Positions 2,695-9,868 of a DNA stretch of 12,454 nt are shown in pieces; the first letter of the stretch is position 1; every line of letters begins with the position of its first letter. Below the pieces are notes generated by a model. It was given only the letters and a program-made list of their open reading frames with translations. It had not been told where the DNA came from and searched no databases. The position numbers and the translations under genes are program-made. The stretch is from UHGV virus genome UHGV-0041831; one strand, given 5' to 3'. This stretch comes from a virus.

Positions 2695-3162
2695 TTATTT
2701 CAGGCACTGAGTACGGATATATTCCTGCGCCCCTTCCAGTTGCTTCTGCATCGTCATCAGCCGCTCTCTGAGGGTGAAATAATCCCGTGTAACGGTGTCT
2801 GCCAGTTGGGGGCCGGTTGCATTATCCACGCGGGCGGTGCCGGTGGCTTCACGCACGGGACCTGGACAGGTGGCGTTGATACGCAGGCGCTTACGACCAG
2901 CGGCAACGTCAGCGCGAAGAGTTTCATTTTCAGCTTTCGCATCAGCTAACTCCTTCGTGTATTTTGCATCGAGCGCAGCAACATCACGCTGACGCATCTG
3001 CATGTCAGTAATTGCCGCGTTCGCCAGCTTCAGTTCTCTGACATTTTTGTCGCGCTGGGCTTTGTAGGTAATGGCGTTATCACGGTAATGATTCAGCCCC
3101 AGACTAAGCGCACCACAGGCCACCAGCAGGGCAATGATGACCACGCACAGTACGCGGTTCAT
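2695..3162 (-). CDS. Rz: Rz i-spanin (inner-membrane spanin subunit)
   Basis: 155-aa [82 protein letters not shown]..., closely similar to lambda Rz as recalled (N-terminal TM, coiled-coil body). Confidence 0.9.
2757..2942 (-). CDS. Rz1: Rz1 o-spanin lipoprotein, embedded in the +1 frame inside Rz
   Basis: 61-aa [64 protein letters not shown]. It has a lipobox (LVVSAC) and a proline-rich mature region, like lambda Rz1, and is fully nested in Rz. Confidence 0.85.
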
Positions 3163-3163
3163 T

Positions 3164-3262
3164 TCACCACCAGCGTATCTGACCGATGAAATAACCGGAG
3201 GCCATAATCACAAACACCAGCCAGATAAGAATGAACTTCCAGGTGGATAATTTTTCAGCCAT
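3164..3262 (-). CDS. Hypothetical 32-aa single-TM membrane peptide between endolysin and Rz (not in the ORF track)
   Basis: Manual translation gives [38 protein letters not shown] lies 8 nt upstream of the ATG. Its TGA stop (3164-3166) is 1 nt from the Rz ATG (3160-3162), suggesting translational coupling. An in-frame GTG at 3335-3337 could extend it to 57 aa. Confidence 0.3.
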
Positions 3263-3337
3263 CACTCGAATCTCCCGAATCAGTTTGCTAAAATCAAACA
3301 CACTTTCTCCTTTGACTTTTCCGGAGTCAGGAAACAC

Positions 3338-3371
3338 AAAACCCCGCTTGGTGCCAACAAACGGGGTTTTT
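3338..3371. terminator. Bidirectional hairpin with flanking A/T tracts between endolysin and Rz
   Basis: AAAACCCCGCTTGGTGCCAACAAACGGGGTTTTT: stem ACCCCG/CGGGGT with an inner TTGG/CCAA helix, T-run after it on plus and T-run after it on minus (TTTTGTGTTT). Confidence 0.45.
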
Positions 3372-3460
3372 ACTTTTATTCACTTACGTTTCGCCAGTTC
3401 GCAGGATTTCGTGTTATCCGCCCGCGTGGCCATACCTTATTTTTCAGCAAAATATTCTGC

Positions 3461-3994
3461 TTATCTGTCGATTCCCCAGCACGCCAGCGCGCTCTCCTGG
3501 TCACGACGGGATACCTGACCATAACAGTTATTTGAGCGGACACGGCAGTCTCTGCCACCGTCCTTAATCCACCAGCGAATCGCCTCACACGCTCCCCTGC
3601 GATCACCTGCATTAATTCGTTTATAAAACGTCGACGGGAAACACTTACCGGGACCAATGTTGTACGGACAGAATGACGCGATCCCCGCTTTCTGGGGTTC
3701 ACTCAATGGCACTCTGATGTTTTTCTCCACCCATGCCAGCGCCTTATCACGCTCAATGGCGTTAACCCGGTCGCATTTTTCCTTCGACAACTTCATGCCC
3801 GGAACGACAGGTTTGCCATCCACCAGGATGGCACCGCGGCAGATGGTCCAGATACCCGCGCCATCACGGTATGCCGTGGTGTGGTTACCTTCCTTTTCAT
3901 CCAGAAACTGGTCGAGAATGTCAGGCGCAGGCGCACCAGCGGCAATCAGCGCCAGAACGGCAGCCGACAGGCCGTATCTGATTTTTGCGTTCAT
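3461..3994 (-). CDS. Phage endolysin, T4-lysozyme-like muramidase with N-terminal signal-anchor (SAR-type)
   Basis: 177-aa ORF MNAKIRYGLSAAVLALIAAGAPA... followed by E-x8-D-x5-T (EGNHTTAYRDGAGIWT), the catalytic spacing of T4-type lysozymes. The N-terminal hydrophobic, Ala/Gly-rich segment has no Cys, consistent with a SAR domain. A pinholin partner lies upstream. Confidence 0.88.
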   Translation of the reverse strand: MNAKIRYGLSAAVLALIAAGAPAPDILDQFLDEKEGNHTTAYRDGAGIWTICRGAILVDGKPVVPGMKLSKEKCDRVNAIERDKALAWVEKNIRVPLSEPQKAGIASFCPYNIGPGKCFPSTFYKRINAGDRRGACEAIRWWIKDGGRDCRVRSNNCYGQVSRRDQESALACWGIDR

Positions 3995-4099
3995 GGATAT
4001 TTATCAGGATTTATCGGTTTCTGAGCCCTAGATATGTTTATCAGTTCCAGCCTGTTGCCTCAGGCTGCTAACAGGTCAATACAATCATGAGGATTATTT

Positions 4100-4372
4100 A
4101 TGGACAATAACACCATTTCTCTACAGGAGTTGCTCGACAGCATTTCCAGGCTTCGGGAAGACGTGAATACCCTTACCGTCGCCTTCTCATATCTGGCATT
4201 CTCAATTCCAAGGGAACAGATGCAATCAACGCTGGCATCAATCCAGTTTGAATCATGCAATCCCAAATGGTCTCAGGAACAACAAGACTCTTTCAGGCGG
4301 CTTGCTGTATTACTGGATGAAAAATATGCTGGTAAAATTACCATTTCGGCGGACTCTTCAGAGAACCCGTAA
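4100..4372 (+). CDS. Hypothetical acidic 90-aa protein encoded antisense to the lysis operon
   Basis: ATG at 4100 with a GAGGA Shine-Dalgarno 6 nt upstream (4089-4093) and a candidate -10 TACAAT at 4080-4085. Sequence MDNNTISLQELLDSISRLREDVNTLTVAFSYLAFSIPREQ... has no family I recognise. Its 3' end overlaps the YdfR-like gene by 35 nt in convergent orientation. Confidence 0.5.
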   Translation: MDNNTISLQELLDSISRLREDVNTLTVAFSYLAFSIPREQMQSTLASIQFESCNPKWSQEQQDSFRRLAVLLDEKYAGKITISADSSENP

Positions 4373-4682
4373 TTATTCCCGGTAGTTTTCCTCTGTAGGT
4401 TATCAACACATCCTGCGCCTCTAAAATTACGGGGCGCTTTTCCGGCGACTGCTCATCCCCTTCACATAACCCGGCAGCAACATCCAGGAAGACCTGTCTG
4501 ATGCTCCTTCTGGCTGCTGACTCATAAAACTCCAGCGCTGCACCTTCAACACGGTCCAGCGAGATGTCCAGGTCAAAAATTTCACCGTCAAAGCGTTTTT
4601 TGTCCCGTAACGCTAAAGTTACCGTAACTTTATTCTCAAAATTGCGGATCCCTTTCACAATCAGTTCATAGTTTTGAGTCAT
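4338..4682 (-). CDS. YdfR-like (DUF1327-like) protein between holin and endolysin
   Basis: 114-aa ORF MTQNYELIVKGIRNFENKVTVTLALRDKKRFDGEIFDLDISLDRVEGAALEFYESAARRSIRQVFLDVA..., resembling E. coli Qin prophage YdfR as recalled, which also sits between holin and lysozyme. GGGGAGAG Shine-Dalgarno; start 4 nt after the holin stop. Confidence 0.65.
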   Translation of the reverse strand: MTQNYELIVKGIRNFENKVTVTLALRDKKRFDGEIFDLDISLDRVEGAALEFYESAARRSIRQVFLDVAAGLCEGDEQSPEKRPVILEAQDVLITYRGKLPGIITGSLKSPPKW

Positions 4683-4686
4683 TGAA

Positions 4687-4902
4687 TTACTCTCCCCGTG
4701 CAGCCTTACGACGGTCCTCTCTGATTTTGAAATACAGGTTAGTCAGATATGTCAGCAGCCCAAACAGCAGACTCCCCAGCACGCCTATTGCCGCCCACTG
4801 AGACGGGGAAACCCTGTCCAGCAACTGCAGGAACCAGTAGCCCGTTCCCACCGCTGACGTGGTGTATGACACACCTGTTGTGATTTTTTCCATCTGGTAC
4901 AT
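4687..4902 (-). CDS. Class II holin, phage 21 S-like pinholin with dual-start motif (71-aa and 68-aa products)
   Basis: From Met27 of the track ORF: [71 protein letters not shown], near-collinear with S21 as recalled. Two TM segments, charged C-terminus, Met1-x-x-Met4 dual start, GGGAGA Shine-Dalgarno 6 nt upstream. The N-terminal extension to 4980 in the ORF track is probably not translated. Confidence 0.85.
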
Positions 4903-5052
4903 ACCCCGTCTCCCGTTATCCGGAAGCTGACAACAATAAAAAAAGCCACCAGTTAAGTACTGATGGCTCTGATAACTCATGCAGGCATCTCAGACGACCC
5001 ACTGACACTACCGGTGAGTTTAACGATACCTTCCATTTGGCTGGCTCACTTT

Positions 5053-6906
5053 TTATGATGATGCCGGTGCATTTATCTCCAGCACCAGACTTTCTATCTC
5101 AACGCCATACGCTGCATTTTTGGTAATATCCGTCAGCGTCAGCGCATTCAGCCCCAGTGTCAGACTGTCTTTTATGACCTGGAATGCCGGGCCAGCCACT
5201 CCATTCAGTTTCGGAGTAACCGTGGCACTGCCGGCGGTGAACACCAGCTCCAGCGTCTGCCAGTCGTTACTGTAATTCCCGAACTCGCCCAACTTTGTGT
5301 TTCCTGCTTTCTTGTGATGCATCAGATTCAGTTTGCCGTCTGTGGTCTGGGTGAAGAACGACATCAGGAACGGGTTACCAGTCCCGGTCATCGCCACGAC
5401 GTCAGGTAACGCTACATCGGTATACAGATAAATTCCCAGACCGAACTGGTTGTTGGTCAGTGCGCCTGACAGTCGAAACTTACAGCTCAGTCTGCCACCC
5501 CGTGTCAGCAGGGAGACTGCGTCATCCACCGGGCGCGTCAGGGACCAGGCTTTATTGCTCTGCTTGGTGATCTTAAATACACCATCTGACAACTGAATTC
5601 CGCCATTCTTAATGCTCCAGCCCTGCGCAGCAGCGTCTCCGGCTGTCGGCAACAGGGAGATTGTGCGTATGGATGCATCTTCAGACGGCCCCGATGGCGT
5701 GTCGCCGCCGGGCGAGGGTTTGATTTCCGGTGCCTTACCACTAATGAAGGCTAAGGTGCGACCGGCTACGTTCAGAATAGCAGTTGCCATACGATCGGGA
5801 ATAATGCCACGACGCGCCCATGAGCTGAAATGCGTCGGGCGATTTGATGATACCCAGTTTTTGTTCGTTCGGGATGCCGAACCGTAATAACCAGACCCGG
5901 CAATATCAGGATCTTCTGACGGGTTGTTTGTCGGTGTATTAACTCCGCTACCATCGGTCATAAAGGGAACAAAATAAATCTGCTGGGATTCTTTACCTTT
6001 ATATGCACCATATACCACTTCATATTGCGTACCGTGTTCTTGTTTCCACGCGTATGTCGTGTCGCCACAAATCCAGGGGACTGATGCCGGACTTCCACCG
6101 TGACACTGCGCCGCCAGCCCGGCAAGGTCAGCACGGAACTGCTGTACCATTGCAAGAAATGCTGCTGGCTGCTGGGCGTAACTGGCATTCGTCATATCGA
6201 ATTCCCCCTGCATCCAGCATATCGCCAGCAAAACGTTTTTCGGGTTTTTCTGCAATGCTGCCTTCGTGCGGAAAAGCAGATCCTGATATAACGGCTTACC
6301 CACTCCCCAGCGAGCCGAATCCTGACTGGCTCCCGTGGACTCGCTGAATGTCCCCTCCGTGCCCTGGGTGAATGCCGAACCACCACGACAGCATGGTACC
6401 AGCAGGATCCCCGCATTATTAGGGATATACGGAAGCAGTTTTTTGGCAATATGTAAGCCCTGTCCGACACAGCCGTACTGCCCTTTGCTCAGGTCAGCCC
6501 GGGGATGGTTAATCGTACTCATATCCTGAACATCATGCAGACAATGGTCAGCAGGAATGATGTCGTTAAATACGCATACTTCACCACCGGGAGTCACTGT
6601 GTTACGACGGGCCAGTTGCTTAATGCGCGGATGGGGCGCATCGTATGAATCCGGAAGCGGAAGCCCTTCACCGTAAGCCATGGCATTGGATTGCCCGGCC
6701 AGTACGATGACGTAGTACCACTCCGGCTCAGTTGCACCACTGACGACCACATCACCTTCTGCTGCAATCGCCTGCATCAGGGTATAAGGGGTTATGGCCA
6801 CCGGACTACCAAACGGCTGCCAGCCCTCCTTCAGTTTTTGTGTCAGTCGTTTCGCAAGGTCTGACGGCGATGCCGCCCTGACCACGTCATAGTGTTTAAA
6901 TGCCAT
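5053..6906 (-). CDS. Prophage NanS-p-like sialate O-acetylesterase (SGNH/DUF303 esterase plus C-terminal domain)
   Basis: 617-aa ORF with a strong GGGAGG Shine-Dalgarno. N-terminal block VIVLAGQSNAMAYGEG carries the GQSN esterase motif. Size, domain layout and position upstream of the holin match the NanS-p/YjhS-like genes that follow stx in Stx phages, as recalled. Confidence 0.85.
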   Translation of the reverse strand: MAFKHYDVVRAASPSDLAKRLTQKLKEGWQPFGSPVAITPYTLMQAIAAEGDVVVSGATEPEWYYVIVLAGQSNAMAYGEGLPLPDSYDAPHPRIKQLARRNTVTPGGEVCVFNDIIPADHCLHDVQDMSTINHPRADLSKGQYGCVGQGLHIAKKLLPYIPNNAGILLVPCCRGGSAFTQGTEGTFSESTGASQDSARWGVGKPLYQDLLFRTKAALQKNPKNVLLAICWMQGEFDMTNASYAQQPAAFLAMVQQFRADLAGLAAQCHGGSPASVPWICGDTTYAWKQEHGTQYEVVYGAYKGKESQQIYFVPFMTDGSGVNTPTNNPSEDPDIAGSGYYGSASRTNKNWVSSNRPTHFSSWARRGIIPDRMATAILNVAGRTLAFISGKAPEIKPSPGGDTPSGPSEDASIRTISLLPTAGDAAAQGWSIKNGGIQLSDGVFKITKQSNKAWSLTRPVDDAVSLLTRGGRLSCKFRLSGALTNNQFGLGIYLYTDVALPDVVAMTGTGNPFLMSFFTQTTDGKLNLMHHKKAGNTKLGEFGNYSNDWQTLELVFTAGSATVTPKLNGVAGPAFQVIKDSLTLGLNALTLTDITKNAAYGVEIESLVLEINAPASS

Positions 6907-7149: not shown

Positions 7150-7206
7150 NNNNNNNNNNNNNNNNNNNNNNNNNNNNNNNNNNNNNNNNNNNNNNNNNNN
7201 NNNNNN
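7150..7206. other. Assembly gap (57 N) flanked by identical 28-mers
   Basis: 7122-7149 and 7207-7234 are both TTTTTTTGTCCATAAGAAAGCCCCTCCG. This looks like an unmerged contig-end overlap rather than real sequence. Confidence 0.8.
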
Positions 7207-7965: not shown

Positions 7966-8042
7966 TGGCGCGTTGTACTGGATTCGAACCAGTGACCGAT
8001 TGCTTAGAAGGCAATTGCTCTGTCCGGCTGAGCTAACAACGC
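7966..8042 (-). tRNA. argO: tRNA-Arg (anticodon UCU), phage-encoded
   Basis: Manual cloverleaf: acceptor GCGTTGT/ACAACGC, D-arm GCTC...GAGC, anticodon stem ATTGC/GCAAT with loop CTTCTAA (anticodon TCT), T-arm ACTGG-TTCGAAT-CCAGT, discriminator G, encoded CCA. Symbol given by analogy with the Stx-phage tRNA cluster. Confidence 0.8.
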
Positions 8043-8055
8043 AGGATACAGATAA

Positions 8056-8132
8056 TGGACCGCCTTCGGGGACCCGAACTCCGCGCAACCAGCTTCGAAA
8101 GCTGGCGCTCTTTCCTGATGAGCTAATGGCGG
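8056..8132 (-). tRNA. argN: tRNA-Arg-like (anticodon UCG) with non-canonical features; possibly degenerate
   Basis: Manual fold: D-arm GCTC-ATCAGGAAA-GAGC, perfect anticodon stem CCAGC/GCTGG with loop TTTCGAA (anticodon TCG), encoded CCA. But the acceptor stem starts with C and has one mismatch, the T-stem has an A-C mismatch, and the T-loop is TTCGGGT (G at the usual A58 position). Confidence 0.55.
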
Positions 8133-8139
8133 TATGTGA

Positions 8140-8215
8140 TGGTGGCCCTTGCTGGATTTGAACCAGCGACCTGGCGATTATGAGTCGCTCGCTCTCACCA
8201 CTGAGCTAAAGGGCC
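8140..8215 (-). tRNA. ileZ: tRNA with CAU anticodon (Ile2/lysidine type or Met)
   Basis: Manual cloverleaf: acceptor GGCCCTT/AAGGGCC, D-arm GCTC-AGTGGTGA-GAGC, anticodon loop CTCATAA (CAT), T-arm GCTGG-TTCAAAT-CCAGC, discriminator A, encoded CCA. Symbol by analogy with the Stx-phage ileZ-argN-argO cluster. Confidence 0.75.
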
Positions 8216-8264: not shown

Positions 8265-9314
8265 TCAAACGATTAAATCCTGAACTTCCCTGACTGTCTG
8301 CTCAAAACGTCCGGTCTCCAGTTCAACGCCAATCGCACGACGCCCGAGCGCCAGTGCCACTTTTACCGTTGAACCTGAGCCCATAAAAAAATCTGCAACC
8401 AGGTCACCCGGACGACTGCTTGCGCTGATTATCTGCTGCAGCATTTCTGCCGGTTTTTCGCACGGATGTTTCCCTGGATAGAACTGCACCGGTTTATGTG
8501 TCCACACATCCGTGTACGGCACCTGCGCCGTCACACCAAAATACCGCCGCAGATGCTTATATTCACTCTGCAGCTCCACATACTGCCGGTTCAGTGACGT
8601 ATACGTATCCACCAGCTGGTGGTGGGGCTTTTCCAGTTCACCGCGCTGATGTTTCTCTTCTGCCACCCGGGCAAACAGCGACTGTAATTTCAGATAATCG
8701 CTTTCGTTCGGTAGCTGCCACTGACTGGCACTGAACCAGTGCGACACCATGTTTTTCTTTCCTGTGGCATCTGCAATCTGTTTTGCCGTTATCCCCAAGG
8801 CAGCGCGCGCATCACGAAAGTAAGAAATCAGCGGGGCCATCACATGCTGTTTCAGTGCACTGCCCTTCGCCGCATACCCGGCATCTTTCGGACGATACGG
8901 CCCCTGATAATGTTCCGCGAACAGAATGCGCTCTGTGGCGGGGAAATACGCCCGCAGGCTTTCCTTGTTGCATCCGTTCCAGCGTCCGGACGGCTTCGCC
9001 CAGATAATATGGTTCAGCACACTGAAGCGTTCACGCATCATGATTTCGATATCAGATGCCAGGCGATGACCACAGAACAGGTAAAGACTTCCGACAGGTT
9101 TCAGCACCCGCCAGAACTGCGCCAGACACTGGTCCAGCCACTTCAGGTAATCATCGTCGCCCTTCCACTGGTTATCCCAGCCCTCAGGCTTCACTTTAAA
9201 GTACGGCGGGTCCGTGACTATCAGGTCAACAGAATTTTCGGGTAACGACCGGATAAATTCCAGGCAGTCGGCGTTGATTAACTCACAACTGGATATTTTT
9301 ACAGTATTAAGCAT
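8265..9314 (-). CDS. DNA amino-methyltransferase, beta-class (N6-adenine or N4-cytosine), apparently orphan
   Basis: 349-aa ORF. Catalytic motif IV DPPY (IVTDPPYF) is near the N-terminus and AdoMet motif I F-x-G-x-G (FFMGSGST) near the C-terminus, the beta-class order. No restriction endonuclease candidate is adjacent. Confidence 0.85.
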   Translation of the reverse strand: MLNTVKISSCELINADCLEFIRSLPENSVDLIVTDPPYFKVKPEGWDNQWKGDDDYLKWLDQCLAQFWRVLKPVGSLYLFCGHRLASDIEIMMRERFSVLNHIIWAKPSGRWNGCNKESLRAYFPATERILFAEHYQGPYRPKDAGYAAKGSALKQHVMAPLISYFRDARAALGITAKQIADATGKKNMVSHWFSASQWQLPNESDYLKLQSLFARVAEEKHQRGELEKPHHQLVDTYTSLNRQYVELQSEYKHLRRYFGVTAQVPYTDVWTHKPVQFYPGKHPCEKPAEMLQQIISASSRPGDLVADFFMGSGSTVKVALALGRRAIGVELETGRFEQTVREVQDLIV

Positions 9315-9806: not shown

Positions 9807-9868
9807 NNNNNNNNNNNNNNNNNNNNNNNNNNNNNNNNNNNNNNNNNNNNNNNNNNNNNNNNNNNNNN
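9807..9868. other. Assembly gap (62 N) flanked by near-identical poly-A/CCGCC-GACGGC sequence
   Basis: Left flank ...GCATAAAAAAAAAACCGCCCGACGGC and right flank ...GGGGAAAAAAAAAAAAACCGCCTGACGGC are near-duplicates. Probably an unmerged contig overlap in a homopolymer-rich region. Confidence 0.75.

Follow-up and report, generated by a model that had tools for sequence, protein, structure and literature searches.

The stretch of DNA analyzed here, the 12,454-nucleotide (nt) window from UHGV virus genome UHGV-0041831, is the late region of an Escherichia coli lambdoid prophage whose late genes lie on the minus strand. Within its lysis cassette lies a plus-strand open reading frame (ORF) of 90 amino acids (aa), hereafter ORF90 (Table 1). 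ORF90 splits the minus-strand unit formed by the holin, ydfR, endolysin and Rz genes, the gene order by which a noncontiguous operon is recognized, and Q-mediated anti-termination is expected to carry the late transcript across it. The ORF, GAGGA and TACAAT elements, hairpin and overlap described in an initial annotation of this DNA are all where it had placed them, and its naming of the neighbors stands: the pinholin is a P21-type class II holin, the endolysin is a phage lysozyme, and the YdfR-like product scores 143 bits against the DUF1327 profile (gathering cut-off, 25 bits), its gene overlapping ORF90 by exactly 35 nt. The lysozyme is probably a SAR-type (signal-anchor-release) endolysin. 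ORF90 has a G+C content of 0.45, compared with 0.55 for the lysozyme gene and 0.53 for the holin gene. Judging from the sequence comparisons below, it is close to certain that ORF90 is a real, optional accessory gene embedded antisense in the operon.

Table 1. Features of the ORF90 locus in coordinates of the 12,454-nt window.
Feature	Position	Strand	Evidence
Rz-like gene	2695-3162	-	
Lysozyme (endolysin) gene with hydrophobic N-terminal segment; late gene downstream of the insert	3461-3994	-	Pfam PF00959
Upstream box TTTATCAGG (consensus AATATCAGG), then -35-like TTTATC	4000-4015	+	Box recurs in leaders of relatives
TATGTT, best-supported -10 element; predicted start near 4045-4047	4033-4038	+	Comparative
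Hairpin CAGCCTG-TTGCCT-CAGGCTG, 7-bp stem	4048-4067	+	-12.9 kcal/mol, z = -2.1 versus shuffles
TACAAT, earlier -10 candidate, rejected	4080-4085	+	Varies; no promoter called
Shine-Dalgarno GAGGA, six bases 5′ of ATG	4089-4093	+	Read from sequence; GAGGA or AAGGA in 42/42 variants
ORF90, 90 aa, cargo gene of the cassette	4100-4372	+	RefSeq WP_000369850.1, PHROG 2411
Convergent 35-nt overlap of ORF90 and ydfR 3′ ends	4338-4372	both	
YdfR C-terminal module, residues 75-114, ending ...ITYRGKLPGIITGSLKSPPKW	4338-4460	-	Divergence from K-12 YdfR
Weak terminator-like hairpin GCGCCTC-N9-GGGGCGC then TTTT, inside ydfR	4415-4446	+	-13.8 kcal/mol, z = -1.6
YdfR-family (DUF1327) gene, 114 aa, convergent with ORF90	4338-4682	-	Pfam PF07041, E = 3.5e-42
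P21-type class II holin gene, first of the lysis cassette	4687-4902	-	Pfam PF04971, E = 9e-33

Selection on the protein was examined in 42 distinct nucleotide versions of ORF90 from 240 loci. Exactly 90 codons are present in 36 of the 42 and only two are truncated, variable sites fall at codon positions 1, 2 and 3 in the proportion 25/24/59, and the ATG preceded at the same spacing by GAGGA or AAGGA is kept in every variant, including that of Citrobacter at 60% protein identity. The acidic product (isoelectric point 4.5) and the GAGGA-N6-ATG start described in the initial annotation are thus confirmed. For the ORF90 frame, the Nei-Gojobori ratio of nonsynonymous to synonymous substitution rates (dN/dS) lies at 0.23-0.28, and four of the remaining five frames give about 1. 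The fifth, the wobble-aligned antisense (shadow) frame, which shares its third positions with ORF90, gives 0.24 and is fully open in some variants, as would be expected if ORF90 were no gene but had stayed open by chance or as the shadow of a minus-strand gene. We consider this scarcely credible, because the shadow frame has no conserved start and in most variants is interrupted (0-2 stops at varying places), whereas in the plus frame length, ATG and ribosome-binding site are all retained as far as Citrobacter, and because an exhaustive profile search of 1.84 billion proteins recovers distantly related proteins of 81-97 aa from other contexts. The variable stops and the lack of a conserved start also rule out a minus-strand gene in that frame. 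Frameshifted or truncated alleles (of 56, 61 and 94 aa, besides one with a double frameshift) occur in several E. coli genomes (P0061, P0037, P0041 and others), indicating that ORF90 is sometimes lost by decay and not just by clean deletion. The last, P0061 (annotated 'ybl58', 44% identity), was first considered a distant relative and proved to be the double-frameshift allele.

The protein is a RefSeq 'hypothetical protein', named 'ybl58' in some records, and is widespread. In 1,128 of 5,426 complete E. coli genomes, coverage of the 696-bp stretch 3995-4690 reaches 80% or more, and ORF90 also occurs in phage isolates, Chlobot and phiSTEC1575-Stx2k among them. It matches the PHROG 2411 profile over residues 1-90 of 90 (E = 1.1e-58), a family of unknown function, and no family was found for it in Pfam, NCBIfam or PADLOC (2023 library, which predates the description of the Tai system discussed below). 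The statement in the initial annotation that no family is recognizable accordingly holds for these libraries and for the folds in the PDB and BFVD, but not for PHROG. An NCBIfam 'Mip' match (E = 0.037) covers only 15 residues and was disregarded. The AlphaFold2 model consists of three helices (residues 8-35, 38-52 and 59-77) and a disordered tail, with a pLDDT (predicted local distance difference test) of 68, and Foldseek searches of the PDB and BFVD with it returned no match with E below 0.4. Searches of open-access papers and bioRxiv preprints found nothing relevant on ORF90/WP_000369850, ybl58, YdfR with holin, or the leader described below.

Comparison of lysis loci shows the same neighbors with and without ORF90. 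In Qin of K-12, essQ-ydfR-rrrQ lacks ORF90 and ydfR and rrrQ overlap by 4 nt; about 12 nt after the start codon of the window lysozyme gene still match the K-12 ydfR 3′ end, evidently a trace of the uninterrupted arrangement. PhiR40_1 encodes a 116-aa YdfR with the same C-terminus as that of the window and retains the same flanking non-coding DNA without ORF90, missing about 296 bp (window ~4055-4350) that comprise the 3′ arm of the hairpin, the ribosome-binding site and ORF90 codons 1 to ~83. Perceval carries at this site a different 79-aa plus-strand ORF behind a full leader; in its record (OV696612.1; L257:1500-1870) the 370-bp gap between the endolysin and YdfR-like genes that holds leader and ORF is unannotated.

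ORF90 is therefore present between genes that are adjacent in related phages, the defining property of a moron in the sense of Juhala and Hendrix (PMC3573123, PMC9928086). It resembles morons in its presence or absence between the same neighbors, its lower G+C content, its promoter-like element, conserved independently of the flanks, and its orientation against the late operon. An opposite-strand example adjoining lysis genes is lambda bor. Unlike morons, ORF90 lies inside the lysis cassette, between holin-YdfR and endolysin, and not at its edge, overlaps a late gene at its 3′ end, and follows a leader common to many unrelated cargos. The suggestion of the initial annotation that it is a moron fits the optional insertion, the lower G+C content and the promoter-like element, but no terminator of its own was found.

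Several further observations concern the junctions of the insert. Where ORF90 is inserted, the ydfR-endolysin translational coupling seen as an ATGA overlap in K-12 is lost. The 20 bases ahead of the endolysin start codon (3995-4015, minus strand) contain no clear Shine-Dalgarno sequence; read on the opposite strand, they make up the predicted ORF90 promoter's upstream box. In phiSTEC1575-Stx2k (L003:1-2500), a P21-type holin, YdfR and ORF90 are followed by no lysozyme; two more holin-like genes and an M15 peptidase take its place, so that two holin types lie in series, and the junction retains a lysozyme start-codon remnant and a minus-strand terminator-like hairpin.

The profile search returned only 20 protein matches, including distant relatives down to ~30% identity that also match the PHROG 2411 profile (E = 1e-19 to 6e-9). 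In lambda-like tail operons, two of these lie antisense between genes M and L (L244, L254); one lies antisense upstream of terminase genes (L248) and one, from Citrobacter, antisense upstream of a lambda-type holin (L005). Every phage relative is oriented against the late operon, with its 3′ end overlapping a small ORF of the late strand. Three relatives are chromosomal, with neither a convergent partner nor lysis genes nearby; one of them adjoins an autotransporter gene, and a 92-aa relative (L252:3001-3279, from a metagenome contig; also L253) lies between dinI and bssS of an enterobacterium, on the same strand as its neighbors and with no phage genes nearby. The initial annotation had offered a brake on lysis timing as one possible role, and this proposal is weakened by the purifying selection on the protein and by the antisense relatives in tail operons and beside terminase genes together with those in chromosomes. 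A specific role in lysis timing is unlikely, since relatives sit in tail operons and chromosomes. In the Citrobacter meridianamericanus prophage (L005:3979-5847), the late region ahead of the gene related to ORF90 encodes a HicA/HicB-like pair together with a 300-aa protein that matches pertussis-toxin S1 and heat-labile enterotoxin A, both in the place taken by stx in Shiga-toxin phages.

When leaders from unrelated contexts are aligned, T1, A2 and T6 of the TATGTT hexamer are the sole invariant upstream columns. In 62 distinct upstream regions chosen solely by their match to the downstream motif, the distance from the start of TAnnnT to TCAGCC is 12 nt in 54 and 13 nt in 7, with any other register represented by at most one, among the matches listed. 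The TTTATC at 4010-4015, 17 nt before the -10 element, matches the -35 consensus at three of six positions and is a weak, inferred element. A DNA profile built from unrelated loci has its best hit in the window at 3994-4052, a weak one (E = 0.027). The TACAAT that had been proposed as -10 element exists but is not conserved, varying to GACAAT and CACAAT in relatives, and the consensus scan calls no promoter there; because a start directed by it would fall inside or after the ribosome-binding site, TACAAT and GAGGA are not usable together.

The hairpin, previously thought to separate the promoter region from the endolysin, lies downstream of the better-supported TATGTT element and would hence be inside the transcript. 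Its 5-bp core is kept across E. coli variants. It is probably the 5′-terminal stem of the ORF90 mRNA and, by inference from the alignment, a short form of the leader helix P1 (TCAGCC/GGCTGA) found in relatives. At the other end, the hairpin inside ydfR is a possible but doubtful end of the ORF90 transcript; neither terminator scan called it.

Outside the E. coli clade the leader is longer, running from the -10 element (TAnnnT) through 6 nt, TCAGCC, a variable hairpin, GGAGGRATGGCTGATTAAC and the ribosome-binding site to the ATG. The variable hairpin differs in stem sequence among loci while retaining its pairing. A survey by chosen patterns, which shape the sample, places the hairpin pattern in at least 120 viral contigs (including L258-L377), followed ~75 nt on by at least 72 distinct ORFs of 42-210 aa. 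Among the matches listed, 91 of 121 instances have both flanking large ORFs, many of them tail genes, on the opposite strand, the 3′ end of the cargo overlaps a convergent ORF in 68 of 85 distinct cases, and of the 92 distinct cargo proteins 15 fall in the ORF90 superfamily. Among the ten most frequent of the remaining cargos, only a retropepsin-like domain and DUF1883 are recognizable, and none matches PADLOC.

Stem P3, which closes the invariant loop ATGGCTGATTA, has a covariation score of 0.351, compared with 0.206 ± 0.016 in shuffled alignments, none of 500 attaining it, and no more than 0.21 when the partners are shifted against each other; this test covers one stem in an ungapped, hand-cut alignment. 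One position of P3 is occupied by AU 23, GU 20, GC 18 and UA 3 times, and the many G-U pairs are in keeping with a plus-strand RNA. A pseudoknot could form if TCAGCC paired with GGCTGA of the invariant loop; covariation is uninformative on this, both arms being invariant. Rfam 15 gave no match better than E = 1 at window 3900-5050 and none relevant in six full-leader loci. Two other readings of the leader motifs were discarded: the invariant ATGGCTGATTAA is no Met-Ala-Asp mini-ORF, the fourth codon being TAC and not a stop in many leaders, and the window contains no second cassette, as nothing leader-like follows the AATATCAGGAT match at 5902 or the TCAGCCC match at 3082-3099.

From these comparisons we tentatively propose, as a possibility short of probable, that the ORF90 cassette is the E. 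coli lysis-operon form of an undescribed cassette family of enterobacterial temperate phages, with a fixed σ70 -10 element, a leader that would be a new cis-regulatory RNA, and diverse small cargo genes, each set antisense into a late operon with its 3′ end overlapping a late gene. Our literature coverage was of open-access papers and bioRxiv, and the class may already have been described elsewhere.

AlphaFold2 predicts an N-terminal domain of three strands and two helices for YdfR (residues 1-72) and a low-confidence C-terminus, and similarity between the window and K-12 proteins stops at residue 74. A C-terminal motif like that of the window YdfR, ΦxΦKGxΦ....IxG[SD]L..P.., ends the convergent genes beside most ORF90 relatives in four other contexts, and these genes are otherwise unrelated (DUF1327, a 238-aa protein, and ORFs of 71, 65 and 66 aa). 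Pairwise scores for the motif are modest, with shuffle p values of 0.0005-0.02 for most pairs. The convergent genes of the Citrobacter and tail-operon loci do not match DUF1327 (PF07041). The Citrobacter 238-aa neighbor was rejected as a YdfR homologue, having no DUF1327 match and similarity limited to the C-terminal tail. The recurrence of the motif is suggestive only, and makes the C-terminal module of YdfR a candidate partner of ORF90.

Such a pair might also constitute an addiction or toxin-antidote module, in which one product is harmful and the other neutralizing. Both products are small, and convergent pairs overlapping at their 3′ ends are known from prophage type I toxin-antitoxin loci; the HicAB pair near the related Citrobacter locus shows merely that the region accepts such cargo. 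We nevertheless consider this very improbable, as neither protein has a hydrophobic character or looks like any known toxin or antitoxin, no match turns up in PADLOC or Pfam, each gene is found without the other, and truncated ORF90 alleles lie beside intact ydfR.

Three described systems are comparable with the locus, Tai/Ati and TERi in their layout. In the 'noncontiguous operon' of phi80, the TaiEcA defense gene is expressed by the lysogen, reduced by Q and neutralized by its late-strand partner AtiEcA (He et al. 2024, PMC11364771). Like the tai gene, ORF90 is on the opposite strand of a Q-controlled late operon, adjoins a small late-strand gene and is expected to be expressed in the lysogen; unlike Tai (~200 aa), it encodes 90 aa, and whereas tai and ati are divergent with overlapping 5′ ends, ORF90 and ydfR are convergent with overlapping 3′ ends. 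In TERi of Listeria prophage phi10403S, which comprises TerI, anti-TerI1 and anti-TerI2, the gene for a 65-aa defense protein overlaps a self-immunity gene whose product binds TerI, and in 96% of related prophages the promoter is conserved and followed by different genes (10.1101/2025.02.27.640495). ORF90 shares with TERi a small opposite-strand gene, the lytic-strand overlap and a conserved promoter with alternating cargo, a likeness of layout only and not evidence of membership. TERi differs in its host phylum, its position in the early lytic module and the lack of a described structured RNA leader, and it was compared by layout.

The third system, STnc6030 of Salmonella phage BTP1, is an RNA expressed in the lysogen, antisense to late genes of the same prophage, that mediates superinfection exclusion (PMC7067206). 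By this precedent for antisense RNA in late genes excluding a superinfecting phage, the ORF90 transcript and not the protein might matter, pairing with late lysis mRNA and thereby delaying lysis or excluding related phages. The transcript would be able to pair with late mRNA over the 3′ end of ydfR, and perhaps beyond it in view of the lack of a clear terminator, and the lowering of TaiEcA by Q expression in phi80 indicates that late transcription can affect such a gene. However, STnc6030 is non-coding, and ORF90 is clearly selected as a protein (dN/dS ~0.25, length kept, start and ribosome-binding site conserved), with protein relatives to ~30% identity in other contexts where the antisense targets differ. 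A purely RNA-based role does not explain ORF90, because the protein is under purifying selection, and we consider this reading improbable; an effect of the RNA could be a secondary role.

Taken together, the best explanation of the locus, which we favor by a modest degree, is that ORF90 is an accessory protein gene on the strand opposite a Q-dependent late operon, probably expressed in the lysogen, with a more speculative role in phage conflict and the YdfR C-terminus as its candidate partner. In this model, ORF90 would be transcribed from its own weak σ70 promoter, with TATGTT as the -10 element and the hairpin forming the 5′ end of its mRNA, and lysogens would express it. Once the prophage is induced, heavy anti-terminated late transcription would collide head-on with that of ORF90 and produce complementary RNA, turning ORF90 down. 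Most speculatively, the small acidic three-helix protein would act in phage-versus-phage conflict, by exclusion or defense, and the late-strand YdfR C-terminal module would be its late-expressed partner or antagonist, as in Tai/Ati and TerI/anti-TerI. The full model of defense with a partner is perhaps right, its chance lying clearly below even.

A number of results weigh against this explanation. The conflict role is argued by analogy only, because ORF90 has no Pfam, NCBIfam, PADLOC, PDB or BFVD match, and BLASTP against phi80 gp52 and gp51 (TaiEcA and AtiEcA) found no similarity (best E = 0.2-2). The promoter is predicted from comparison and has a poor -35 element, the consensus scan finding none upstream of ORF90, and no canonical intrinsic terminator lies within 200 nt past the stop in the window or in most relatives. 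The leader of the window is the short form, which lacks both the variable hairpin and the covarying stem and in which CAGCCTG and CAGGCTG pair directly, and its homology to the long leaders consists of the weak profile hit (E = 0.027) and an alignment by eye. As for the partner, the C-terminal motif does not fit at one locus (L250), and ORF90 and YdfR are not obligate partners, because the three chromosomal relatives have no convergent partner and PhiR40_1 has YdfR with the same C-terminus without ORF90. Across all cassettes, the association between cargo families and partner families is loose (adjusted Rand index 0.285), which rules out strict pairing.

Several of these points also fit a second explanation, that ORF90 is a lysogen-expressed accessory protein acting on the host or on another target unrelated to YdfR, the overlap being merely its insertion site. 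The relatives standing alone in chromosomes, between dinI and bssS or beside an autotransporter gene, favor such a role, as do the YdfR with the same C-terminus found without ORF90, the loose association of cargo and partner families, and the lack of a defense family match. On the other hand, the C-terminal motif recurs in convergent genes that are otherwise unrelated, and strong cargo diversity behind one leader is more typical of conflict genes than of host-directed ones. We regard a host-directed role as a substantial alternative that is nonetheless unlikely, and retain a phage-conflict protein, possibly with a late-strand partner, as the preferred explanation.

Other features of the window lie away from the cassette. 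Between endolysin and Rz, a 57-aa unannotated minus-strand ORF (3164-3373) has a hydrophobic C-terminal half, and it is preceded on the late strand by a hairpin at ~3339-3373 whose flanking A-run and T-run (AAAACCCCG...CGGGGTTTTT) give it the appearance of a two-way terminator. Farther along the late strand, a tRNA trio (Arg-TCT, Arg-TCG and Met-CAT; 7966-8215, minus strand) is located between a 349-aa DNA methylase-like ORF (8265-9314) and the position of toxin or NanS-type cargo, as is usual in Stx-type (Shiga-toxin-type) lambdoid phages. Runs of N at 7150-7206 (57 bases) and 9807-9868 (62 bases) fall in non-coding late-strand stretches near the Q-like gene and the tRNA genes.

ORF90 is found in about a fifth of complete E. 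coli genomes and also in Shiga-toxin phages (phiSTEC1575-Stx2k), yet it has been left unnamed and has no Pfam family. The shared promoter and leader provide a 26-nt motif as a handle for dozens of small phage genes, and YdfR (DUF1327), a widespread lysis-cassette protein, gains a candidate partner. The ORF90 locus is also a compact system for studying how head-on late transcription silences an embedded gene. If the wider cassette family proposed above is real, its leader would make expression of the cargo depend on whether the phage is in the lysogenic or the lytic state, and the cargos would form a large, untapped reservoir of small proteins for anti-phage action or self-immunity. The cassette genes are probably expressed from prophages, and they may decide which phages grow on a lysogen.

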